In this document: one piece after another, positions 3,669-21,461 of the stretch | Layout of the letters: each line of letters opens with the position of its first letter | Position numbering within the stretch: position 1 is the first letter of the stretch | From: Escherichia coli | GTDB lineage: Bacteria > Pseudomonadota > Gammaproteobacteria > Enterobacterales > Enterobacteriaceae | NCBI RefSeq assembly: GCF_045037415.1 | Contig: NZ_CP173438.1 | Direction: 5' to 3' (one strand) | Length of the DNA: 64,000 nucleotides | Translations under genes and position numbers: made by a program | The notes under the pieces: model-generated | Told to the model about the DNA's origin: nothing | The model's database searches: none | The model's input: the letters and a program-made list of their open reading frames with translations, nothing else

Positions 3669-4106
3669 ATGATCACCGACAAACTGTTGATGTTCTCCGA
3701 AGCTCAGGCGGTTACGAATACCGCGGCTTCTACTGACGTAATCGATCTCGGTCCAATTGACGGAAAACGTCGTGATATCGGCGTGGGTTATCCGCTTGAG
3801 TTTTGGGTGCTGGTTAACGAAGCCGCCACGGCAAGTGGTGAGGAAACTGTAAACATCCAGTTGCAGACGAGTGAGAATAACAGCTCATGGTCCACTATTT
3901 ATGATAGTGGCGCACTGGCAAAGGATACCCTGACAGCAGGTAAACGAGTTGTTTCTGCAAAGGTGCCTGCCGGTGTTCAGCGATATCTGCGTGTTAACTA
4001 CTCCGTCGCAACTGGCCCACTAACGGCTGGCGAATTCACTGCTGGTATCAGTCTTGATGTTGATGCCAATACGCCGTATCCGATCCGCTCAAAAGTAACT
4101 GGTTAA
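3669..4106 (+). CDS. Hypothetical virion protein (145 aa)
   Basis: ORF with RBS (GGAGAAAG) in late operon. Confidence 0.55.
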   Translation: MITDKLLMFSEAQAVTNTAASTDVIDLGPIDGKRRDIGVGYPLEFWVLVNEAATASGEETVNIQLQTSENNSSWSTIYDSGALAKDTLTAGKRVVSAKVPAGVQRYLRVNYSVATGPLTAGEFTAGISLDVDANTPYPIRSKVTG

Positions 4107-13235: not shown

Positions 13236-15710
13236 ATGAGACAGGAATGTATACAAGCGGTCCAGCAGGCGGCGCAGCGCACGTTAACGGCGCGAGAAAT
13301 ACAGAACATTGAAGACCGCATTTATCGAAATATGCGCTCCATTGCTCGTGATGACCCGATGTCGTGGAGACAACTTTCCGAATCAGAGCGGCTATATCGT
13401 GCAGCACAATTGGCATCTGAAGAATTACAGCGAGAAGCGGCATTAAAGAAACGTCGTGTGGCCCTCACTATAGCCGCACGTCAGAGATTGGATAAATTTA
13501 TCAATAGCTATCAAGGGGCTGATGGGAAACTTGGCGCTCTTAACCGTACTATTGCTTTTAATGCAGACGGTAAATCGAATTTCCTCTCTGTTGAGTCCAG
13601 AACAAAAGCCACTCGTGATTATGCATTGAGTCAATTGCAAGAGGCATTTGAAGCAGTTGATCCTCGCTTTTTTGGCCTGTTTGAAGATGAAGCTGGCGTG
13701 CGTGACCTGGTATATGAAATGCGAGGGCAAAATACTGGCAATGCTAAAGCAAGAAAAGGTGCTAAGGCGTGGAGAGAAGTTACAGAGCTGCTGCGCCGCC
13801 GGTTTAATGATGCTGGTGGGGACATTGGCTATCTCGAAAACTGGGGGATCCCTCAACATCATTCTATGGAAAAGGTTGGGGCGGTATCAAAGGATAAGTG
13901 GGTTGGCGATGTTATAGGTAAGCTGGATCGCAAATATTATACCCGAGCCGATGGACAACTGATGAACGATGCCGAGTTGTCTGCATTTCTTGGAGAGGCT
14001 TATAACACGATAGCTACTGGTGGGCTGAATAAGCTTACTGATACCGGAATGCGAATTTCCGGCGCACGTGCTAACCGTGGTAATGCATCACGACAGATAC
14101 ATTTCAAAAATGCAGATTCCTATCTCCAATATCAACAACTTTATGGTGATCGCTCTCTATGGGAAATCATGGTCGGTCACCTGGAAGGTATCAGTAAAGA
14201 TATTGCTCTGGTGGAAACATATGGTCCAAACCCCGATCATGTTTTCCGCTCCCTTCTTGATCAGGTGAAGGCAGAAACGGCAACAGCTAACCCGAGTAAA
14301 ACCGGTAAAGTCGAGCGGCTGGCGAACAACACAGAGAATCTGTACAACTTTATTTCCGGAAAGACACAGCCTGTAGCGAATCCGCACATCGCGCGATGGT
14401 CTGACAATATCCGCAACTGGCTGGTTGCCAGCAGACTCGGATCCGCGTTGCTGTCATCGTTCTCTGATCTTGGAACCATGTATCTGTCTGCGAAGGTTAC
14501 CAACCTTCCAATGAACCAGTTATTCCGCAACCAGCTTGAAGCTATGGACCCAACGAACCGTACAGAACTTGCGCGGGCGCGCCGCGCTGGTCTGGCGATG
14601 GAATCTCTACTTGGCAGCGTTAACCGCTGGGCGATGGATAATATGGGGCCGTCTGTGTCTCGTTGGGCTGCAACGGCGGTAATGCGTGCCAGTGGGCTTA
14701 CAGCATGGTCAGATGCGCACAAGCGCGCCTATGGCGTAACCATGATGGGAAGCCTGGGAGAAGTAGTGTCACGGACACCAGACCTTCGTAGCCTCGATGA
14801 TTCTGATTTTCGTATCCTGAAAAGCAAAGGGATTACTGACACAGACTGGAGCGTATGGAAGCTGGCGCAACAGGAGGACTGGGGGAACGGCAATAATACG
14901 ATGCTGACACCGGAAAGCATTATGCGTATCCCTGATTCAGCAGTTAAACATCTTGGTGAGCCTGAACGCGTGAAATTTGAGGCAATGCGTAAACTGCTCG
15001 GTGCCGTAACTGAAGAAGTTGATATGGCTGTTATTACACCGGGAGCACGTGAGCAACTGATAACCGGTTCTGGTATTCAGCGTGGAACATGGAAAGGTGA
15101 ATTAACGAGAAGTGTTTTCCTGTTTAAATCGTTCCCTATCTCGGTGGTTATGCGTCACTGGTCACGCGCTATGGGTATGCCGTCTGCTGGTGGGCGTGCG
15201 GCATATATTGCGACGTTTATTGCCAGTACGACCATTCTTGGCGCTTTGTCGCAGCAACTTAACGACCTTGCGTCTGGTCGTAATCCTCGCGAGATGACAG
15301 GAGAAGATGCTGCTAAATTTTGGCTTGGTGCTCTACTGAAAGGTGGTGGTCTTGGCCTTTACGGTGACTTTTTATTGTCAGATCACACTAGGTACGGAAG
15401 CGGCGCGCTGGCGTCGATGCTTGGCCCGGTAGCTGGTCTGGTTGATGACGTAGTGAAGATTGCTCAGGGCATACCGTTAAATGCTGTGGAAGGGAAGAGT
15501 GAGCAGACTGGTGGTGATCTGGTGAAGCTGGGGAAAGGTTTGATGCCTGGTGCGAATCTCTGGTACTTGAAGGCGGCTCTCGATCACATGATCTTTAACC
15601 AGATGCAGGAGTATTTTTCACCAGGCTATTTGCGTAAAATGGAGCAACGTTCGAAGAAAGAGTTTAACCAGACATACTGGTGGCGACCACAGGATGTCAC
15701 TCCGCAATAA
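13236..15710 (+). CDS. Large internal virion (core/ejection) protein, 824 aa
   Basis: Third large protein of the internal-protein block. Confidence 0.6.
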   Translation: MRQECIQAVQQAAQRTLTAREIQNIEDRIYRNMRSIARDDPMSWRQLSESERLYRAAQLASEELQREAALKKRRVALTIAARQRLDKFINSYQGADGKLGALNRTIAFNADGKSNFLSVESRTKATRDYALSQLQEAFEAVDPRFFGLFEDEAGVRDLVYEMRGQNTGNAKARKGAKAWREVTELLRRRFNDAGGDIGYLENWGIPQHHSMEKVGAVSKDKWVGDVIGKLDRKYYTRADGQLMNDAELSAFLGEAYNTIATGGLNKLTDTGMRISGARANRGNASRQIHFKNADSYLQYQQLYGDRSLWEIMVGHLEGISKDIALVETYGPNPDHVFRSLLDQVKAETATANPSKTGKVERLANNTENLYNFISGKTQPVANPHIARWSDNIRNWLVASRLGSALLSSFSDLGTMYLSAKVTNLPMNQLFRNQLEAMDPTNRTELARARRAGLAMESLLGSVNRWAMDNMGPSVSRWAATAVMRASGLTAWSDAHKRAYGVTMMGSLGEVVSRTPDLRSLDDSDFRILKSKGITDTDWSVWKLAQQEDWGNGNNTMLTPESIMRIPDSAVKHLGEPERVKFEAMRKLLGAVTEEVDMAVITPGAREQLITGSGIQRGTWKGELTRSVFLFKSFPISVVMRHWSRAMGMPSAGGRAAYIATFIASTTILGALSQQLNDLASGRNPREMTGEDAAKFWLGALLKGGGLGLYGDFLLSDHTRYGSGALASMLGPVAGLVDDVVKIAQGIPLNAVEGKSEQTGGDLVKLGKGLMPGANLWYLKAALDHMIFNQMQEYFSPGYLRKMEQRSKKEFNQTYWWRPQDVTPQ

Positions 15711-15721
15711 AAGGAGATATG

Positions 15722-15844
15722 ATGGTTCAAATAACTTTTATTGTACTAATATGTGCAGCGTTTTTATGCTATTCATACATTTTGATAAAAATGGGTTTCA
15801 ATTGGAATCTCTGTTGCGTGCAGCGGCATGGTTCGGCTTTGTAG
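15722..15844 (+). CDS. Possible small hydrophobic protein (40 aa) in AT-rich moron
   Basis: AAGGAG RBS at 15711-15716 with 5-nt spacer to ATG; hydrophobic product; a competing 62-aa ORF (15694-15882) uses another frame. Confidence 0.3.
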   Translation: MVQITFIVLICAAFLCYSYILIKMGFNWNLCCVQRHGSAL

Positions 15845-15929
15845 TATTAGGAATTGTATTGTTCGGAAGAATAATAAAATAACTAGTTAATTTGTGGATT
15901 GGTGCTGTTTTTCCATGATAGGGGTAATT

Positions 15930-16310
15930 ATGAGAAAAGTATTTTTGATTTTTGGATTTATGCTTCTCGTTGGATGCCAGTCAGCTGCACAGTTTGAAAG
16001 AAATATGCTTACGTGGCGCGGGCAGAGTATAGACGCAATGGTTCAGCAGTGGGGGTATCCTCAGGGAGAGCTTACATCTCCAGATGGAAACAGAGTGTAT
16101 GTTTACTCAAGCTCTGGTAGTTATAACGTACCACAAACCACAACGTATAATACTACGTCTAATCTAATTGGTAATACTATATATTCAAACACATACGCAA
16201 CAACTGATGGCGGTTATACACTCCATTTCAGTTGCTCTGTTTACGTTGAGTTTGGTGCTGATAAGATTATTAAAAATGTTACATGGCGCGGTAATAATTG
16301 CGTTGCGTGA
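15930..16310 (+). CDS. Lipoprotein (moron), 126 aa
   Basis: Signal peptide MRKVFLIFGFMLLVGC with lipobox LLVGC; AT-rich context; terminator directly downstream. Confidence 0.7.
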   Translation: MRKVFLIFGFMLLVGCQSAAQFERNMLTWRGQSIDAMVQQWGYPQGELTSPDGNRVYVYSSSGSYNVPQTTTYNTTSNLIGNTIYSNTYATTDGGYTLHFSCSVYVEFGADKIIKNVTWRGNNCVA

Positions 16311-16319
16311 CATGTCACA

Positions 16320-16343
16320 GGCCGCTTTCGCGGCCTTGTTTTT
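16320..16343 (+). terminator. Rho-independent terminator after lipoprotein gene
   Basis: GGCCGC-TTTC-GCGGCC hairpin followed by TTGTTTTT. Confidence 0.7.
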
Positions 16344-16503
16344 AACGAATGCCACCGCCACCCGGGCGGGAATCCGCAGAACGCCCACCGCAGCGGGAGC
16401 CGTCAGCAGCAGTGTCGCTGTCGTGCTGACAACGACCGGCAAAGGCCTGAGTTGAAGCTACCAGAGACAACAAAACGAACAGTGCAGCAAATGCTTTTTT
16501 CAT
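16342..16503 (-). CDS. Possible small secreted peptide (53 aa)
   Basis: Signal-peptide-like N-terminus MKKAFAALFVLLSLVASTQAFA; GC-rich low-complexity mature part with two Cys; weak RBS. Confidence 0.3.
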   Translation of the reverse strand: MKKAFAALFVLLSLVASTQAFAGRCQHDSDTAADGSRCGGRSADSRPGGGGIR

Positions 16504-16575
16504 TGTGAAATTTCCATCTATAAGCCACCTCAATGTGGCGTCAATGAGTGTAGCACTGACTTTTGTTTCGTCCAC

Positions 16576-16597
16576 AAAAAAGCCCGCGCTGCGGGCT
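16576..16597 (-). terminator. Rho-independent terminator of the reverse cassette
   Basis: GCCCGC-GCT-GCGGGC hairpin followed by a U-run on the minus strand, directly after the 16602 stop. Confidence 0.7.
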
Positions 16598-16601
16598 TCT
16601 A

Positions 16602-17234
16602 TTAATGCAGTTTATCTTTGCTTATAACCAGTAGTCTGTGGGTATGCACATCTTTATCACTGCCCCAACAGAAATCAGCCCACTGGCTATAGAAATCATC
16701 CCATGATGTCATGAAGCTAAGAGGTCTATCTTCTTCAGAGCCATCTGAAACGTATACATTATATCCTGGGGTGTTTATAGCCCAAGAAATCATTCTTTCC
16801 CAGAATCTTCTCCCATCGATTGTTTGTTGCTCATCAGATACAACGATCGCATATTGCTCTAGGAAGAACTGAAAAAAAATCTGAGGCAAACCATGAACAG
16901 CACGGTCATGAATAACATTAGGCGTACGCCATACCATGATCTGCGTACATGTTCTTTTGGCTTCGACGATATCTTCCCGAAAGATTAACTTAACCGCATA
17001 CACCGTTTCTGGAGTATCGCTGGTAGTAATCATTCTGTAATGATCGCCATTACAAGATTTTACAAGGCGATAACCATAAGGTGTTGTGAATCCCGGAAGA
17101 ACGAAATCAACCACACCTTTCGCTAAGTAGCTTTCGGTGTGACTAGTGTTCTTCTCAGACATGTTCAGTTTTCTATCGAAATCTGCTTCTGGGATAATGT
17201 ATGGCATCGCTTTTCTTGTTGTATTTGTTCTCAT
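16602..17234 (-). CDS. Uncharacterised cargo protein, 210 aa
   Basis: Strong RBS GGGAGG 5 nt before ATG; own sigma70-like promoter and operator upstream; no family recognised; AT-rich. Confidence 0.75.
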   Translation of the reverse strand: MRTNTTRKAMPYIIPEADFDRKLNMSEKNTSHTESYLAKGVVDFVLPGFTTPYGYRLVKSCNGDHYRMITTSDTPETVYAVKLIFREDIVEAKRTCTQIMVWRTPNVIHDRAVHGLPQIFFQFFLEQYAIVVSDEQQTIDGRRFWERMISWAINTPGYNVYVSDGSEEDRPLSFMTSWDDFYSQWADFCWGSDKDVHTHRLLVISKDKLH

Positions 17235-17293
17235 TTCGTCCTCCCATGTTTGGCTACAGGACGCGTTTTGAAGGGAAGATTAAAAATGCTTTC

Positions 17294-17308
17294 TTACCCT
17301 TGAGGTAA
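17294..17308. promoter_or_regulatory. Operator-like palindrome TTACC-N5-GGTAA (copy 1) overlapping the start region of the 16602-17234 gene
   Basis: Perfect 5-bp inverted repeat with 5-bp spacer; abuts the predicted -10. Confidence 0.5.
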
Positions 17309-17336
17309 TAGTACGCTATTCACCCCCAGTCTGCAA
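17308..17336 (-). promoter_or_regulatory. Sigma70-like promoter for the 210-aa gene
   Basis: Minus-strand TTGCAG-N17-TACTAT, about 75 nt upstream of the ATG. Confidence 0.45.
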
Positions 17337-17380
17337 TCTGTACAGAATTATTTAAAGGCACATCCCTGTGCCGCCGCCCG

Positions 17381-18037
17381 TCAGAAGAACCCTGCCTTGT
17401 CGTTGATGTACTCCGCGTGCGTCTGGATATCACGCAGGCATTTGCTCACACCAACGATGTAGCAGAACATGGTGGTCAGCTCCGCCGCCGCGCCCGATAC
17501 GTCGTGCCCGTCGTCCTGTAACTGGTTCAGCAGATTCATCAGCAGTGAGTTCTCCGTCAGGCCGAGAACACCAGACGGCGAGTGAATCAGGCTGCGGTAG
17601 CCGGGCTTCAGTGGGGCACTGTATTCTTTTTTGTCTTCCAGCTTGATCGCCTCCATAATGGCGGGCATGAAGCCTGACAAGACCTTCTCCACTTTTGTTT
17701 CTTGTTGTCTTAAACGTTTCTCGCATTCAATGAAGTAGCGTCGCACCTGGCGACCTTTTTCGTTACGCTCGACCATCGCCAGCTCTTTGGCTGTATCAAG
17801 GGTGAGGTGGTACTCTTTGCGGTTGTGGCCGCCTCTACCAGATGTTTGCTTTCCCAAATTGGAAAGCAAAATATAGTCTTGATTTTCAATGAATTCGTAT
17901 TCTGATATGCGATTTGTAATCCATGCTGCAAACACCTTTTTAACACCTAAAAAAGCGTGCAGATCGCGGGCATTACAAAGTAGGGCTGTTTCGTTAGATA
18001 TAGTGCCGTTGAATACGGGGATGAGTTGAGCGTTCAT
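17381..18037 (-). CDS. Antirepressor-like protein: AntA-type N-terminal domain plus C-terminal domain paralogous to the small SOS-controlled protein
   Basis: GGAG RBS; N-terminal motif [27 protein letters not shown] typical of AntA/AntB antirepressor domains; C-terminal 70 aa about 40% identical to the 18357-18614 product. Confidence 0.65.
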
Positions 18038-18196
18038 GATGGCGTCTCCACTTAGCGAATTACATCACCACCGCTGAGAACCAATCAGATGGTGGTGAAC
18101 TGAACGGAGTTGGTCTTACCGGCCTAAGTGGTACCGGCGTCCTTTCGGACCCCCATTCAGCCCACCATAATTCTGGCATGACTGTGCTATACGCAT

Positions 18197-18218
18197 AAAA
18201 AAACCACGTCTGGCGTGG
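18197..18218 (-). terminator. Putative rho-independent terminator between the small SOS-controlled gene and the antirepressor gene
   Basis: CCACG-N5-CGTGG hairpin followed by seven U on the minus strand; short stem. Confidence 0.4.
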
Positions 18219-18308
18219 TATGCGCCACTTAGTAATCCGGGAGAACCAATCCCGGCACTGGATTTTGCCAGTGCCCGATTACTATGGCACAAGAGGAGTG
18301 CGATGTAA

Positions 18309-18327
18309 ATTTACCGCAAAGGTAAAT
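18309..18327. promoter_or_regulatory. Operator-like palindrome ATTTACC-N5-GGTAAAT (copy 2)
   Basis: 7-bp inverted repeat with 5-bp spacer, same core as copies 1 and 3. Confidence 0.45.
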
Positions 18328-18356
18328 ATAAGCACTCCATTTGGTAATTTCAAACC

Positions 18357-18614
18357 TTATCTGGTTTGTTTTCGTAATTGTTCGGCACAATAGTCGAGAT
18401 GTGTTTGCAGATCCTGCATAGACATCTGTGAGCTGGTGACGTAGTTAATCAGTGCAGTCAGTTCGGCAAGTGGGCCATCGACATTAAATCCATCCTTATC
18501 GAGATCCCGGAGTAATTTCATCAAGTGCGATCCCTCCACCAGTGACCTGACGCCTCCCGGCGTGTGAATCCTTTCGGTAAATCCGTCTTCCAGTGGATAG
18601 TGATACTGCTGCAT
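18357..18614 (-). CDS. Small SOS-box-controlled protein (about 85 aa), candidate SOS-inducible antirepressor
   Basis: GGAGAA RBS before ATG at 18614; LexA box 19 nt upstream; homologous to C-terminus of the adjacent AntA-like protein; ORF track extends to 18737 but upstream part covers promoter and operator. Confidence 0.6.
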   Translation of the reverse strand: MQQYHYPLEDGFTERIHTPGGVRSLVEGSHLMKLLRDLDKDGFNVDGPLAELTALINYVTSSQMSMQDLQTHLDYCAEQLRKQTR

Positions 18615-18633
18615 CTTATCTTCTCCATGCAAT

Positions 18634-18653
18634 AACTGTATATTTATACAGTA
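18634..18653. promoter_or_regulatory. LexA (SOS) box
   Basis: AACTGTATATTTATACAGTA matches the E. coli LexA consensus TACTGTATATATATACAGTA at 18 of 20 positions, with CTGT-N8-ACAG intact. Confidence 0.75.
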
Positions 18654-18689
18654 GCAAATAATTTGTTTGCTATCCAGCACGTTTTGCAA

Positions 18690-18706
18690 ATTACCTGAAA
18701 GGTAAT
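18690..18706. promoter_or_regulatory. Operator-like palindrome ATTACC-N5-GGTAAT (copy 3) upstream of the LexA box
   Basis: Perfect 6-bp inverted repeat with 5-bp spacer. Confidence 0.5.
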
Positions 18707-18809
18707 ATCTATTCGTATTTACAGCCTTTCTATCCATATGTGGTTTTCCAGGTAATAGAATAACCAGATATGCGGCGCAACGGGTGCTGCGACTATCTGG
18801 AGATTTAAC

Positions 18810-21461
18810 ATGACGGTTTCAACCGAAGTTGACCACAACGAATACACCGGTAACGGAGCTACGACATCATTTCCGTATACCTTCCGTATTTTCAAAAAAT
18901 CCGACCTGGTTGTTCAGGTGTCTGACCTGAACGGGAACGTAACAGAATTGGTTCTGGATACTGACTACACAGTAACCAATGCTGGAGGATATAATGGCGG
19001 TAATGTAATTCTGTCGAAGGCGTTGGCTAACGGTTATCATATTTCTATATCACGAGAGCTCCCGGTTACGCAGGATACTGATTTGCGTAATCAGGGTAAG
19101 TTCTTCGCTGAGGTACATGAAGACGCGTTCGATAAACTGACAATGCTTATTCAAAAGTGTTTTTCATGGATGAGGTTAGCACTTATAAAACCAAGCATTC
19201 TGGCTAACTATTATGATGCAAAAAATAATAAGATATCAAATCTAGCAAATGCCACTGACAGAAACGATGCTGTCAATAAAGGTTATGTTGATGATCTTTT
19301 TACTGGAGGTGTAACGCCTACATCTAACAGCGCTAAAAACGATATTTTTACAAATCACCAAAGAAAGATTGTAGCTACGATGCCGCTTCTTTTTCCTGAA
19401 TATGATGCGATTATGGCTGCTAACCCGTCAGCAACTTATATGTATCCTCAAGGATTCTGCGTTAGCGAAGATTTGATATACATCACTTATCCATTTGAGC
19501 CTAAACAGACGAATAATGTCGTCGCAGTATTTAACATATCTGGTATTTATCAAGGTTATTTCTATGTTCAGGCTGGCGGCCCAGGCTTCGCTGCTGAAGG
19601 AATCGTGGTTACGTCAGACTATGGCCCCAAAAAAATGTTTGTTGGTCACACAAACGGAATACTGCGTGAATTTAATATGGAGGGGGCATTATACGGAAGC
19701 AATCTGCCTCTTGTACAAAACCATGATGTTGGATTATTCAACCAGTTCAGCTACAGAAGAGGTATATGGCTCGTTGAGCAGAATGCGCCAGAAGTAGGAC
19801 AGAAAATCACAAGAACTGTACTTGCAGTGTTCGACAGTGGTTTCAATCGCCTGTCAACTATAACGCTGCCGTTACATGATGTTGGGTATGTAACTAAAAG
19901 CACCTCACCTTATGCGCCTTATTTCAACAAGCGTCAGGGTATTGCGGTAGGTGATAACTACTTTGTCTGCGGCTATGGCGGCTTCATAGCTGATGGGGCA
20001 GGAAGCGCAGGATATAACGAATATCAGGGCAGCAAAGTTTTTAACCCTGACGGTACAAAGCGAACTGAATCAATGCTTCATCCTCAGGCCATGATGGATT
20101 TAATGAAAGCCGCAGGATTGAACGTCACTCGCATAGAAAATGAAGGCGTTTGTGTTTCTCAGGATGGAAAATCCATTTATTCACTTTACATTCATCAGGA
20201 AAGAACTGGCTCTGAACCTTACAATTCAGGTTTGGTTATTTTCGAAGATTTCTCCACTGATAAAGATGCTATCGATTTTACACCTGCATCCAGGCTTTAC
20301 CGCGGATTTGATATCGATCACGCGAGCATTGGGGTATATCCCCGTAGTGCGAAGGGGATTGTTAACCCTGTAGATGGTACGTTGTTCACTAACATGACTG
20401 AAATTCTTCGCTATATGCAGGAGATGAGTCAGAAGGCATTTAATTTTTACACAGGGACTGTCAGCATTGCTGATATATCTGGCGTGGCAATCCCTTCCAG
20501 CACATATGTTGAAATACTGAATGCGAATAATCAGACTTTTATAGTCAACTATTATTCATCTGATAGTGGCATTAGTTATTTGGTTGCAACTAATCCTTCT
20601 GGTGACTTTGTATTTGTGCGCCAGCGACCGGCACAGTGGGCATCTAACTTAACCATTCAGCAAAACGCAGATCCTGATACAAACCAATTAAACCGCATCA
20701 CTGCATCATCATATGCCGGTGCAACTACAAACTCTCAGAAAATATTGGTCCTTGACCAGCAGGCTACAGCTAGCGCAAATAGCTTGGTATTGGGCGGTAG
20801 TTCTTCTGTGTTTAGGTCTGCCACCACGGTGGATATTGCATGCAACAGCGACCCGACAGCATTGGGAGGAACCATACGCTGGCGGTTTTATGATACAGGT
20901 CTTCGCCCGTTTGCTGACAATACCTATAATTTTGGTCAGGCATCGTTTCGTATTAAAGACGCCTACTTTGCAAATGCCCCAACCGTTTCATCAGATGCCA
21001 CGCTGAAAACCAATCCCGAGGCAATATCAGATTTAAGTGAAATGCTTTCTTCTGATAGAGACAGCATTCTTGATGCCTGGGGCGATATTTCTGTTGTGGC
21101 GTATCGATGGCTCGACGCTATATCCATGAAGGGCGATGGTGCCAGATGGCATTTTGGCGTCATGGCTCAGCAGGTAAGGGATGTATTCTTGGCGCACGGA
21201 ATTGATGGAACCAGATTTGGCCTTCTTTGCTATGACGAGTGGGATGATATTTTTGAGCCGGTAATCGCGACTAAAGAGATTACCGATACGTCTGGTGAGT
21301 TGGTCACCGTCGAATATGACACCGGAGAACAGAGGCTGGTTAAAAAAGCGGGTAGTTCATGGGGTATACGGCCTGACCAGTGCGCTTGGCTTGAGGCTGC
21401 ATATCAGCGCCGTCGATGCGATCGTATTGAAGAGCGACTCGAACTATTGGAATCAAAATAA
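18810..21461 (+). CDS. Tailspike protein with C-terminal intramolecular chaperone (peptidase S74-like) domain, 883 aa
   Basis: RBS CTGGAG; conserved-looking N-terminal virion-anchor region; C-terminal block (RWHFGVMAQQVRDVF...) resembles the self-cleaving chaperone domain of endosialidases and tail fibres. Confidence 0.75.
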   Translation: MTVSTEVDHNEYTGNGATTSFPYTFRIFKKSDLVVQVSDLNGNVTELVLDTDYTVTNAGGYNGGNVILSKALANGYHISISRELPVTQDTDLRNQGKFFAEVHEDAFDKLTMLIQKCFSWMRLALIKPSILANYYDAKNNKISNLANATDRNDAVNKGYVDDLFTGGVTPTSNSAKNDIFTNHQRKIVATMPLLFPEYDAIMAANPSATYMYPQGFCVSEDLIYITYPFEPKQTNNVVAVFNISGIYQGYFYVQAGGPGFAAEGIVVTSDYGPKKMFVGHTNGILREFNMEGALYGSNLPLVQNHDVGLFNQFSYRRGIWLVEQNAPEVGQKITRTVLAVFDSGFNRLSTITLPLHDVGYVTKSTSPYAPYFNKRQGIAVGDNYFVCGYGGFIADGAGSAGYNEYQGSKVFNPDGTKRTESMLHPQAMMDLMKAAGLNVTRIENEGVCVSQDGKSIYSLYIHQERTGSEPYNSGLVIFEDFSTDKDAIDFTPASRLYRGFDIDHASIGVYPRSAKGIVNPVDGTLFTNMTEILRYMQEMSQKAFNFYTGTVSIADISGVAIPSSTYVEILNANNQTFIVNYYSSDSGISYLVATNPSGDFVFVRQRPAQWASNLTIQQNADPDTNQLNRITASSYAGATTNSQKILVLDQQATASANSLVLGGSSSVFRSATTVDIACNSDPTALGGTIRWRFYDTGLRPFADNTYNFGQASFRIKDAYFANAPTVSSDATLKTNPEAISDLSEMLSSDRDSILDAWGDISVVAYRWLDAISMKGDGARWHFGVMAQQVRDVFLAHGIDGTRFGLLCYDEWDDIFEPVIATKEITDTSGELVTVEYDTGEQRLVKKAGSSWGIRPDQCAWLEAAYQRRRCDRIEERLELLESK

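Follow-up and report, generated by a model that had tools for sequence, protein, structure and literature searches.

In a 64,000-nucleotide stretch of Escherichia coli contig NZ_CP173438.1 (assembly GCF_045037415.1), hereafter the window, two neighbouring minus-strand genes, one for a small free protein and one for a larger AntA-like protein, share a domain of about 80 residues that corresponds to the antirepressor (Ant) of Salmonella phage SPC32H, known from its crystallised complex with the repressor Rep (PDB 5D50). We consider it probable (roughly 0.7) that this is a two-input antirepressor locus, in which both genes carry the SPC32H-type Ant domain and the fused copy, like the free one, targets a Rep of this type. 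The binding of the fused copy to Rep, the direction in which Rep acts at the promoter of the small RNA (sRNA) isrK, and the timing of events are steps that we infer.

A podovirus prophage resembling epsilon15 and phiV10 (genus Uetakevirus) is situated at guaA; its right-hand part covers window positions 1 to ~23,400 and contains the locus. In megablast searches, positions 15700–18900 matched phiv142-3, phiV10, TL-2011b, ZX5 and relatives. E. coli strain 447 (NZ_CP183089.1; L011) is 100% identical to the window, the first position of which corresponds to L011:20306, and its prophage extends from the integrase adjoining guaA to the lysis genes. The features on which the argument rests are the following.

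17381–18037, minus strand: fused antirepressor gene, 218 amino acids (aa), WP_001555611.1 'phage antirepressor Ant', phrog_377 'anti-repressor Ant'
Parts of the fused protein, minus strand: AntA N-domain, residues ~1–110; long linker helix, ~93–133; SPC32H-Ant-like C-domain, ~135–218 (17384–17635)
18357–18614, minus strand: free antirepressor gene, 85 aa, WP_001188252.1, orthologue of SPC32H ant, epsilon15 gp19 and phiV10p24
18634–18653, minus strand: near-consensus LexA (SOS) box TACTGTATAAATATACAGTT, ~20 nucleotides (nt) 5' of the free ant start codon
18691–18705, no strand: O1, Rep operator-like palindrome ATTACCTTTCAGGTAAT, upstream of the free ant promoter and kept across phages
18311–18325, no strand: O2, Rep operator-like palindrome, just 3' of the free ant stop codon and between two tandem promoter-like elements
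17294–17308, no strand: O3, Rep operator-like palindrome, 5' of the next minus-strand gene, a 210-aa open reading frame (ORF)

The shared antirepressor domain

The first-pass annotation, made from the letters of the window, had proposed that the small protein and the C-terminus of the AntA-like protein are paralogues at roughly 40% identity, and this was borne out. In a single BLASTP comparison the two products aligned with 34 identities over 78 positions (44%; 59% positives, 1 gap; E = 1e-19), and both match phrog_450 and chain E of PDB 5D50. The proposed identity thus stands (44% locally, 37% across the full 84-column domain alignment), but the proposed span, residues 15–80 of the small protein, does not: the shared region comprises residues ~1–75 of free Ant in its 85-aa numbering and residues 134–210 of the fused protein. 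In the domain alignment 30 of 86 columns (84 domain residues) are invariant, and the fused domain spans the whole Ant sequence.

Free Ant is 88% identical to the SPC32H product annotated 'ant: anti-repressor protein' and matches 5D50 chain E, 'Anti-repressor protein' of the Rep–Ant complex, at E = 4e-47 and phrog_450 at 9e-48; its gene and SPC32H ant occupy the same position, adjoining the tailspike gene. We placed its start at the ATG at 18614, in agreement with RefSeq and with both ant of SPC32H and the protein that was crystallised. The longest ORF (18357–18737), which would give a protein of 126 aa, was rejected because its start puts the operator and the LexA box within the coding sequence. 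RefSeq names this orthologue of the crystallised Ant 'hypothetical protein', and it is the untested fusion that bears the name 'phage antirepressor Ant'.

In the fused protein, residues 135–216 match phrog_450 (5.7e-36) and residues 137–213 match 5D50 chain E (E = 8e-14). Pfam assigned AntA (PF08346) to the fused protein only, at residues 22–92 (E = 8.2e-26); it held no family for the shared domain and gave no match in fused residues 93–218, so neither KilAC (PF03374) nor P22_AR_C (PF10548) was found there. In an AlphaFold2 model, the C-domain reached a predicted local distance difference test (pLDDT) score of 80–94, while most of the N-domain stayed below 50; the alignment available for the latter was shallow and no fold can be assigned to AntA. 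A Foldseek search of the PDB returned confident matches only to 5d50_G and 5d50_E (template modelling scores, normalised to the target, of 0.78 and 0.82; root-mean-square deviation 1.3 Å over 67 columns), so that the fused C-domain, going by its predicted fold, is a full copy of Ant and does not map to an unrelated fold. The module that had been described as present once alone and once fused is indeed a complete copy of the 86-aa SPC32H-type Ant, which in other phages stands behind four different N-domains. The fusion has an intact reading frame in the window, as it has in at least 78 complete E. coli genomes.

Rep, its putative operators and the LexA box

The first-pass annotation had placed the target repressor outside the window. 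The gene for Rep (194 aa, WP_000836290.1) lies at L011:9596–10180, ~10 kb upstream of window position 1, and its product is homologous to 5D50 chain A (E = 4e-42; ~42% identity to SPC32H Rep). The 64-kb window holds three copies of the palindrome TTACC-N5-GGTAA, all of them at the antirepressor locus, against an expectation of 0.04; the prophage as a whole has 10 (0.03 expected), of which three flank rep and three are those at the antirepressor locus. The GenBank record of epsilon15 marks this palindrome as a site bound by 'repressor', both at the repressor gene and upstream of gp19/ant. From this pattern we take the palindromes to be putative Rep operators. An equivalent of O3 is present in phiv142-3, TL-2011b, ZX5 and AH20E044, and loci with a fused gene have an operator ~37 bp 5' of isrK, an exact match in all of them except the site in locus L012 (one mismatch).

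The LexA box of free ant contains a CTGT-N8-ACAG core at 18636–18651. When TACTGT-N8-ACAGT was searched for with one mismatch allowed in a 45-kb stretch comprising the prophage and its flanks, this box was the sole site, and no LexA box was found upstream of the fused gene; the loose core CTGT-N8-ACAG alone gave two further sites. The box is kept in epsilon15, SPC32H, phiV10 and TL-2011b, and three distant loci have it as an ATGT-N8-ACAG variant. SPC32H is counted among the prophages with a LexA-released antirepressor that is reported to inhibit the repressor by protein–protein contact (PMC7380047).

An antisense-RNA cassette upstream of the fused gene

The 320-nt spacer between the two genes contains two Rfam RNAs above their gathering scores, isrK and C4, arranged with the following elements.

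18325–18353, minus strand: promoter-like TTGAAA-17-TATATT (10/12 in a consensus scan), whose -10 abuts O2 and which would be repressed by Rep
18281–18309, minus strand: promoter-like TTTACA-17-(TG)cCATAGT, which would start transcription at isrK +1; O2 ends 1 nt 5' of its -35
18197–18274, minus strand: isrK-type sRNA, Rfam RF01394, 60.9 bits (gathering score 50)
18088–18172, minus strand: C4 antisense RNA, Rfam RF01695, 61.2 bits (gathering score 45)
18046–18086, minus strand: C4 target sites on the mRNA leader, a2 GATTGGTTCTC at 18076–18086 and b2 CTAAGTGG at 18048–18055

A -10-like hexamer stands immediately 5' of TTACC in most of the loci compared. The downstream promoter-like element is kept as TTTACA-17-CATAGT in eight other Uetakevirus-like loci, in which the operator core likewise ends just 5' of the -35; Gifsy-1 has at the same position a different promoter-like element, TTGACA-17-TATATT, and the TTACC operator is absent from it. 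Within isrK lie two decoys, a1 GATTGGTTCTC at 18241–18251 and b1 CTAAGTGG at 18225–18232, followed by an intrinsic terminator (stem 18203–18219 and a U-run, terminator scan). The Rfam family c4-a1b1 (RF03163) scored 36.2 bits, under its gathering score of 46.7.

C4 has the loop b' CCACUUAG at 18124–18131 and, on its 3' side, a' AGACCAA at 18110–18116. The former is perfectly complementary to CTAAGTGG twice, once within isrK and once at 18048–18055, where the target overlaps the GGAG Shine-Dalgarno sequence (18046–18049) that belongs to the fused gene itself; GATTGGTTCTC, which pairs with AGACCAA, is similarly duplicated (18241–18251 and 18076–18086). No small coupled ORF resembling icd or orf45 was found between C4 and the ATG at 18037.

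The same region was extracted from nine loci, across which b and b' covary in four types and a and a' in three. The b/b' types are CTAAGTGG/CCACUUAG in the window, CTAAAAGG/CCUUUUAG in phiV10, TL-2011b and ZX5, CTACAAAGG/CCUUUGUAG in Tyrion, a Klebsiella phage and two metagenomic or genomic loci, and AUCACCG/CGGUGAU in Gifsy-1; the a/a' types are TTGGT(T)CT/AGACCAA, TTGGCGT/ACGCCAA and TTTGCAC/GTGCAAA. At every locus compared b2 abuts or overlaps the Shine-Dalgarno sequence. This covariation is the strongest evidence for what would be a functional antisense gate. isrK and C4 stand upstream of the fused gene in 11 of the 11 cassettes examined, and epsilon15 and SPC32H have neither these RNAs nor the fused gene. 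Neither RNA is annotated in any of the records examined.

The suggestion that the domain is delivered under two regulatory inputs is thus supported by the anatomy of the locus, with a LexA box only at the free gene and isrK and C4 only at the fused one.

Domain swaps and distribution

The same C-domain stands behind Bro-N in TL-2011b, ZX5 and Tyrion (95%, 95% and 77% identity to the window's C-domain, respectively). The 'anti-immunity protein' phiV10p23 is a Bro-N::Ant fusion truncated by a frameshift in the C-domain, the remainder of which is the tiny ORF p22 (phiV10 1561–2240). Only 56 clusters came out of a profile search of 1.84 billion representative proteins; they include fusions to AntA, Bro-N, Phage_pRha and ORF6N. 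The Rha- and ORF6N-fused examples that we inspected occupy the same locus of a Uetakevirus-like element, with a free Ant gene adjoining and an operator-like palindrome, isrK and C4 all 5' of the gene.

In the phage collection searched, the Ant domain occurs in 32–35 records, all of them enterobacterial phages with this locus and, where classified, Uetakevirus. No record has a fused copy and lacks a free one, and the N-terminal domain (NTD) of Rep is found in essentially the same records. A tree of the domain sequences built by the unweighted pair group method with arithmetic mean gave no clean split between fused and free forms.

Among phages with identical Rep, the C-domain is 94–99% identical while the N-domain has been swapped for an unrelated one. 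The reverse swap also occurs: the AntA N-domain (residues 1–110) is ~95% identical in a 207-aa 'antirepressor Ant' of a lambdoid prophage that has an unrelated C-terminus, with the break directly after YFIECEK(R/K)LR. The nearest relatives of this N-domain in a large database, among the matches listed, are AntA+PF10548 proteins, and a homologue search with the N-domain gave only near-identical sequences among the best 120 listed. Because these natural swaps are reciprocal, with one C-domain behind four N-domains and one N-domain before different C-domains, a function can be assigned to the C-terminal region: the C-domain would set repressor specificity and the N-domain would be an interchangeable chassis. 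That the shared domain is the repressor-binding part, as had been surmised, is strongly suggested by the SPC32H Ant–Rep complex 5D50, the co-occurrence with Rep, the domain swaps and the overexpression experiment in ZX5 described below.

One Uetakevirus-like prophage, in E. coli AH20E044 (NZ_CP196245.1; 3500–7400), has free ant together with two complete operator–isrK–C4–antirepressor cassettes, one Bro-N::Ant and the other an inverted AntA::Ant, with differing C4 loops and specificity types. The locus looks like a hotspot of cassette accumulation. A partial 'antirepressor N-terminal domain' pseudogene is also present there.

Proposed mechanism and alternative readings

Free Ant would be the SOS trigger of the prophage: LexA would occupy the box at its promoter, DNA damage would remove LexA, and the Ant then made would bind Rep and strip it from its ATTACC-N5-GGTAAT operators, as is known for the 88%-identical SPC32H protein, its orthologue. 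The fused gene would be a second antirepressor against the same Rep type, wired like P1 immI or Gifsy-1 isrK–anrP. Its transcription would be held off by the Rep operator between the two tandem promoter-like elements; any transcription would yield first the isrK sRNA and then, by read-through of the terminator, C4 and the ant mRNA. The C4 loop would pair with the Shine-Dalgarno region (b2) and with a2 upstream of it and so block translation, and isrK, with its identical a1 and b1 copies, would titrate C4. With a Rep operator at the promoter and C4 blocking translation, the fused copy would thus be silent in a stable lysogen. Its release could come when Rep is already failing, as a feed-forward or commitment step in induction. 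It could also come when the phage infects or superinfects a cell and cognate C4 has yet to reach a sufficient level, as an anti-immunity function of the P1/P7 kind. No convincing minus-strand terminator was found after the free ant stop codon (18357–18330), unlike in epsilon15, where one is present; transcripts of ant made in the SOS response may continue into isrK and so couple both circuits.

Overexpression of ZX5 ORF4, a Bro-N fusion, during infection reduced lysogens from 1e9 to 1e6 (~1000-fold) and rep mRNA by 75% (PMC9782041). ZX5 has a Rep identical to that of this prophage (100% over the NTD) and a fused C-domain that is 95% identical.

Several observations weigh against a second antirepressor aimed at the same Rep. 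The ZX5 experiment does not isolate the target of the fused protein because it relied on overexpression and ZX5 has free Ant as well. The fused C-domain is only 37–44% identical to free Ant, and the two most divergent fused forms (P0170 and P0171) keep only the C-terminal half of the domain. Across phages, the divergence of the Rep NTD, free Ant and the fused C-domain shows no clean co-variation; the Salmonella Ant proteins are 84–88% identical while the Rep NTD is 53% identical. An icd- or orf45-like coupled ORF is absent from the window, unlike P1 and Gifsy-1. Finally, the operator by the isrK promoter is centred near -45, and because of this position Rep could activate that promoter rather than repress it.

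One alternative is that the fused C-domain is mainly an oligomerisation handle, through which the protein co-assembles with free Ant and either poisons it or tethers it via the N-domain to DNA or another partner, and does not bind Rep. Such a role would fit an Ant that is reported to be a tetramer (PMC9638917), a fused domain that covers the whole Ant sequence with 30 invariant columns of 86, the presence of the free copy in every phage with a fused one, and the retention of only the C-terminal helical half in the most divergent fusions. We nevertheless regard it as unlikely: overexpression of the Bro-N fusion favoured the lytic outcome, as for an antirepressor (PMC9782041), and the separate and elaborate antisense control resembles that of the bona fide antirepressors of P1 and Gifsy-1.

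The fused copy might instead target another repressor, that of a heteroimmune relative or of another resident prophage, and serve inter-prophage cross-talk or competition, not self-induction. This we hold to be rather improbable. Within the phage collection, only phages that have both a Rep homologue and these TTACC/GGTAA half-sites carry the domain, the cassette's own promoter region has such an operator, and the C-domain is 94–99% conserved among phages with identical Rep; yet the two paralogues in one phage are only ~40% identical, trans-acting antirepressors against non-cognate repressors are documented in Salmonella (PMC3121763), and one prophage stacks two cassettes with differing C4 specificities. 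The specificity of Ant may moreover be broad, because free Ant stays 84–88% identical where the Rep NTD is at 53%.

A chance match or a functionless relic of a decaying duplicate, as the frameshift truncation of phiV10p23 in its C-domain and the annotation of the Klebsiella copy as truncated might suggest, is effectively refuted by statistics and conservation, namely the pairwise E value of 1e-19 with its profile matches, the intact frame in the window and at least 78 complete E. coli genomes, and the conservation of position and regulatory RNAs across genera with compensatory covariation.

Beyond the two-input antirepressor locus itself, it is conceivable, but in our view doubtful, that immunity in these phages has two tiers, with Rep as the primary one and the C4/isrK allele that gates the fused antirepressor as a second one of P1/P7-like specificity. 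If this were true, phages with identical Rep, such as this prophage compared with ZX5, phiV10 and TL-2011b, would not share immunity, and one could induce or overrun another; the stacking of cassettes with differing C4 alleles and N-domains, as in AH20E044, would be an arms race; and AntA, Bro-N, Rha and ORF6N would be generic chassis, with the C-terminal regions of this very large and little understood 'antirepressor' superfamily generally being target-specific warheads.

Implications

These results offer a concrete, structure-backed function for the variable C-terminal region in one branch of the common Bro-N/AntA/Rha/ORF6N 'antirepressor' proteins. In one prophage, two sensors, SOS/LexA and a gate made of antisense RNA, appear to control copies of a single repressor-inactivating domain. 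The logic of induction versus superinfection immunity can thereby be tested directly in a podovirus that is small and tractable and whose Rep–Ant complex has been solved. RNA-defined immunity groups are predicted among prophages of the phiV10 type, which about a tenth or more of complete E. coli genomes contain. The locus also exposes an annotation gap, in which the experimentally grounded free Ant is 'hypothetical' in RefSeq and isrK and C4 go unannotated in the records examined.

Neighbouring genes and further loci

The antirepressor locus occupies a short run of minus-strand genes, flanked by the gene for the last large virion protein (13236–15710, plus strand) and the tailspike gene.

18810–21461, plus strand: tailspike gene, next to free ant
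16602–17234, minus strand: 210-aa ORF, a PHROG match to phrog_1349 with no assigned function, 3' of O3

The tailspike has the conserved Uetakevirus N-terminal ~165 residues and a C-terminal part matching other PHROG families, the usual mosaic of receptor-binding proteins. For the 210-aa ORF, no family was found in NCBIfam, in PADLOC or among Pfam-independent families, and NCBIfam and PADLOC gave no matches for any of the four local proteins. It adjoins the Bro-N cassette in AH20E044 and accompanies the antirepressor cassette in several phages, and the Rep operator-like palindrome O3 (17294–17308) lies ~60 nt upstream of it. The ORF may be a Rep-controlled moron and is an uncertain member of the antirepressor system. 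Between the virion gene and the antirepressor block are a small lipoprotein-like ORF (phrog_3716; 15894–16310, plus strand) and a gene for a ~53-aa 'transmembrane anchored protein' (16403–16575 region), and the segment holding both differs among related phages.

In L011 (9462–19939) and in L010, Rep operator-like palindromes also stand 5' of the replication genes, inside the opening codons of the gene for the terminase small subunit (L011:16762) and 5' of a small ORF preceding the portal gene. Judging from these positions, Rep may directly control late or structural operons, which would be unusual for a lambda-style circuit.

In a lambdoid prophage of E. coli 19AR0254 (3860–3948), an Rfam match to sRNA-Xcc1 (RF02221, 69.3 bits) replaces isrK/C4 before an antirepressor that combines AntA with a different C-domain, and may be another RNA gate of antirepressor genes. 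In Klebsiella phage ST512-KPC3phi13.3, an extra 85-aa gene unrelated to Ant (1721–1978) stands between free ant and isrK. The fused gene of this phage (2512–3255) seems to begin right after b2 (MLEQTAPTVF..., a Bro-N start), yet its annotation begins only at an internal Met. Either the gene is disrupted or the annotation is wrong.

Comparison with known systems

The Rep–Ant antirepression system of SPC32H was reportedly described in Kim & Ryu 2013 (J Virol) and Kim et al. 2016 (PNAS), with the structure PDB 5D50. As in SPC32H, free ant here has the same position, a LexA box and a Rep operator upstream, and Rep of the prophage is homologous to chain A of 5D50, although only ~42% identical to SPC32H Rep. 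In contrast to SPC32H and epsilon15, which have the free copy only and lack isrK and C4, this prophage adds an RNA-controlled fused copy.

The immI operon of P1/P7, c4–icd–ant, is said to have been characterised by Citron & Schuster in 1990. Like it, the present cassette has a C4-family RNA before the antirepressor gene, duplicated targets with a1/b1 upstream and a2/b2 at the ribosome-binding site, and an operator of the primary repressor at the promoter. Several C4 specificity types occur among phages with an identical primary repressor, as in P1/P7, where differing C4 specificity is said to be the basis of heteroimmunity. P1 Ant is controlled by C1, C4 RNA and Icd (PMC8201110). Unlike P1, there is no icd-like coupled ORF here and the C-domain has no relation to P1 Ant; moreover, the phage that carries the module is a podovirus and has a paralogue under LexA control besides.

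The isrK–orf45–anrP module of Gifsy-1 and its LexA-controlled GfoA are attributed to Hershko-Shalev 2016 and Lemire 2011. We confirmed the order isrK–C4–antirepressor in the Gifsy-1 sequence, and the AnrP N-domain matches the N-terminal part of the phrog_377 profile. The isrK terminator of Gifsy-1 is partially read through and IsrK activates anrP translation in trans (PMC4825925), and a separate small LexA-controlled antirepressor is present in the same phage, as here (PMC3121763). In contrast to the present locus, the two antirepressors of Gifsy-1 are not detectably related (AnrP versus GfoA, BLASTP E = 8.2). The generalisation that an isrK/C4-gated antirepressor is a fusion of the small SOS antirepressor was therefore rejected for Gifsy-1, and so the duplication of the same warhead appears specific to Uetakevirus-like phages. 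GfoA belongs to phrog_4847 and Ant to phrog_450, with no cross-hits at the level of PHROG profiles as opposed to a direct pairwise comparison. The orf45 coupling of Gifsy-1 is absent here, and the TTACC operator is missing from the upstream region in Gifsy-1, in keeping with its different repressor.

ORF4 of ZX5 (in full vB_EcoP_ZX5; Pathogens 2022), an 'anti-repressor', shares with the fused gene the locus, Rep, a 95% identical C-domain and the upstream isrK and C4 (PMC9782041). The ZX5 paper mentions neither SPC32H Ant nor the small ORF, LexA or the RNAs (PMC9782041). The two differ in the N-domain, AntA here and Bro-N there, and in the b site, CTAAGTGG here and CTAAAAGG in ZX5. ORF4 is the only experimental test of a fused form.

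Domain shuffling of Bro-N/AntA/Rha/ORF6N regulators with KilAC, P22_AR_C and similar C-domains was reportedly laid out by Iyer, Koonin & Aravind in 2002. The fusions described here use the same N-domains and the same logic of an N-domain followed by a variable C-domain. Unlike in the catalogued Bro-N/AntA types with KilAC or P22_AR_C, the C-domain here is in no Pfam family and copies a free-standing antirepressor whose structure has been determined and whose target is known.

Tum of coliphage 186 is a LexA-controlled antirepressor that is found fused (an antirepressor and a DinI-like half) or split in relatives (PMC3121763), and the small Gifsy antirepressors GfoA, GftA and FsoA are its functional analogues. 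It is a precedent for standalone and fused forms of an antirepressor, but its fusion partner is C-terminal and DinI-like, and each phage has one copy.

In the literature searched, which had the primary SPC32H papers outside it, we found no phage described as having a single warhead duplicated and placed under two circuits, no case in which a free antirepressor of defined structure serves four N-domain families as their C-terminal module, and no report of multiple C4 specificity types among phages with identical Rep. Each component, the SPC32H Ant, the C4/isrK gate and the AntA/Bro-N chassis, is already known; the combination is new.

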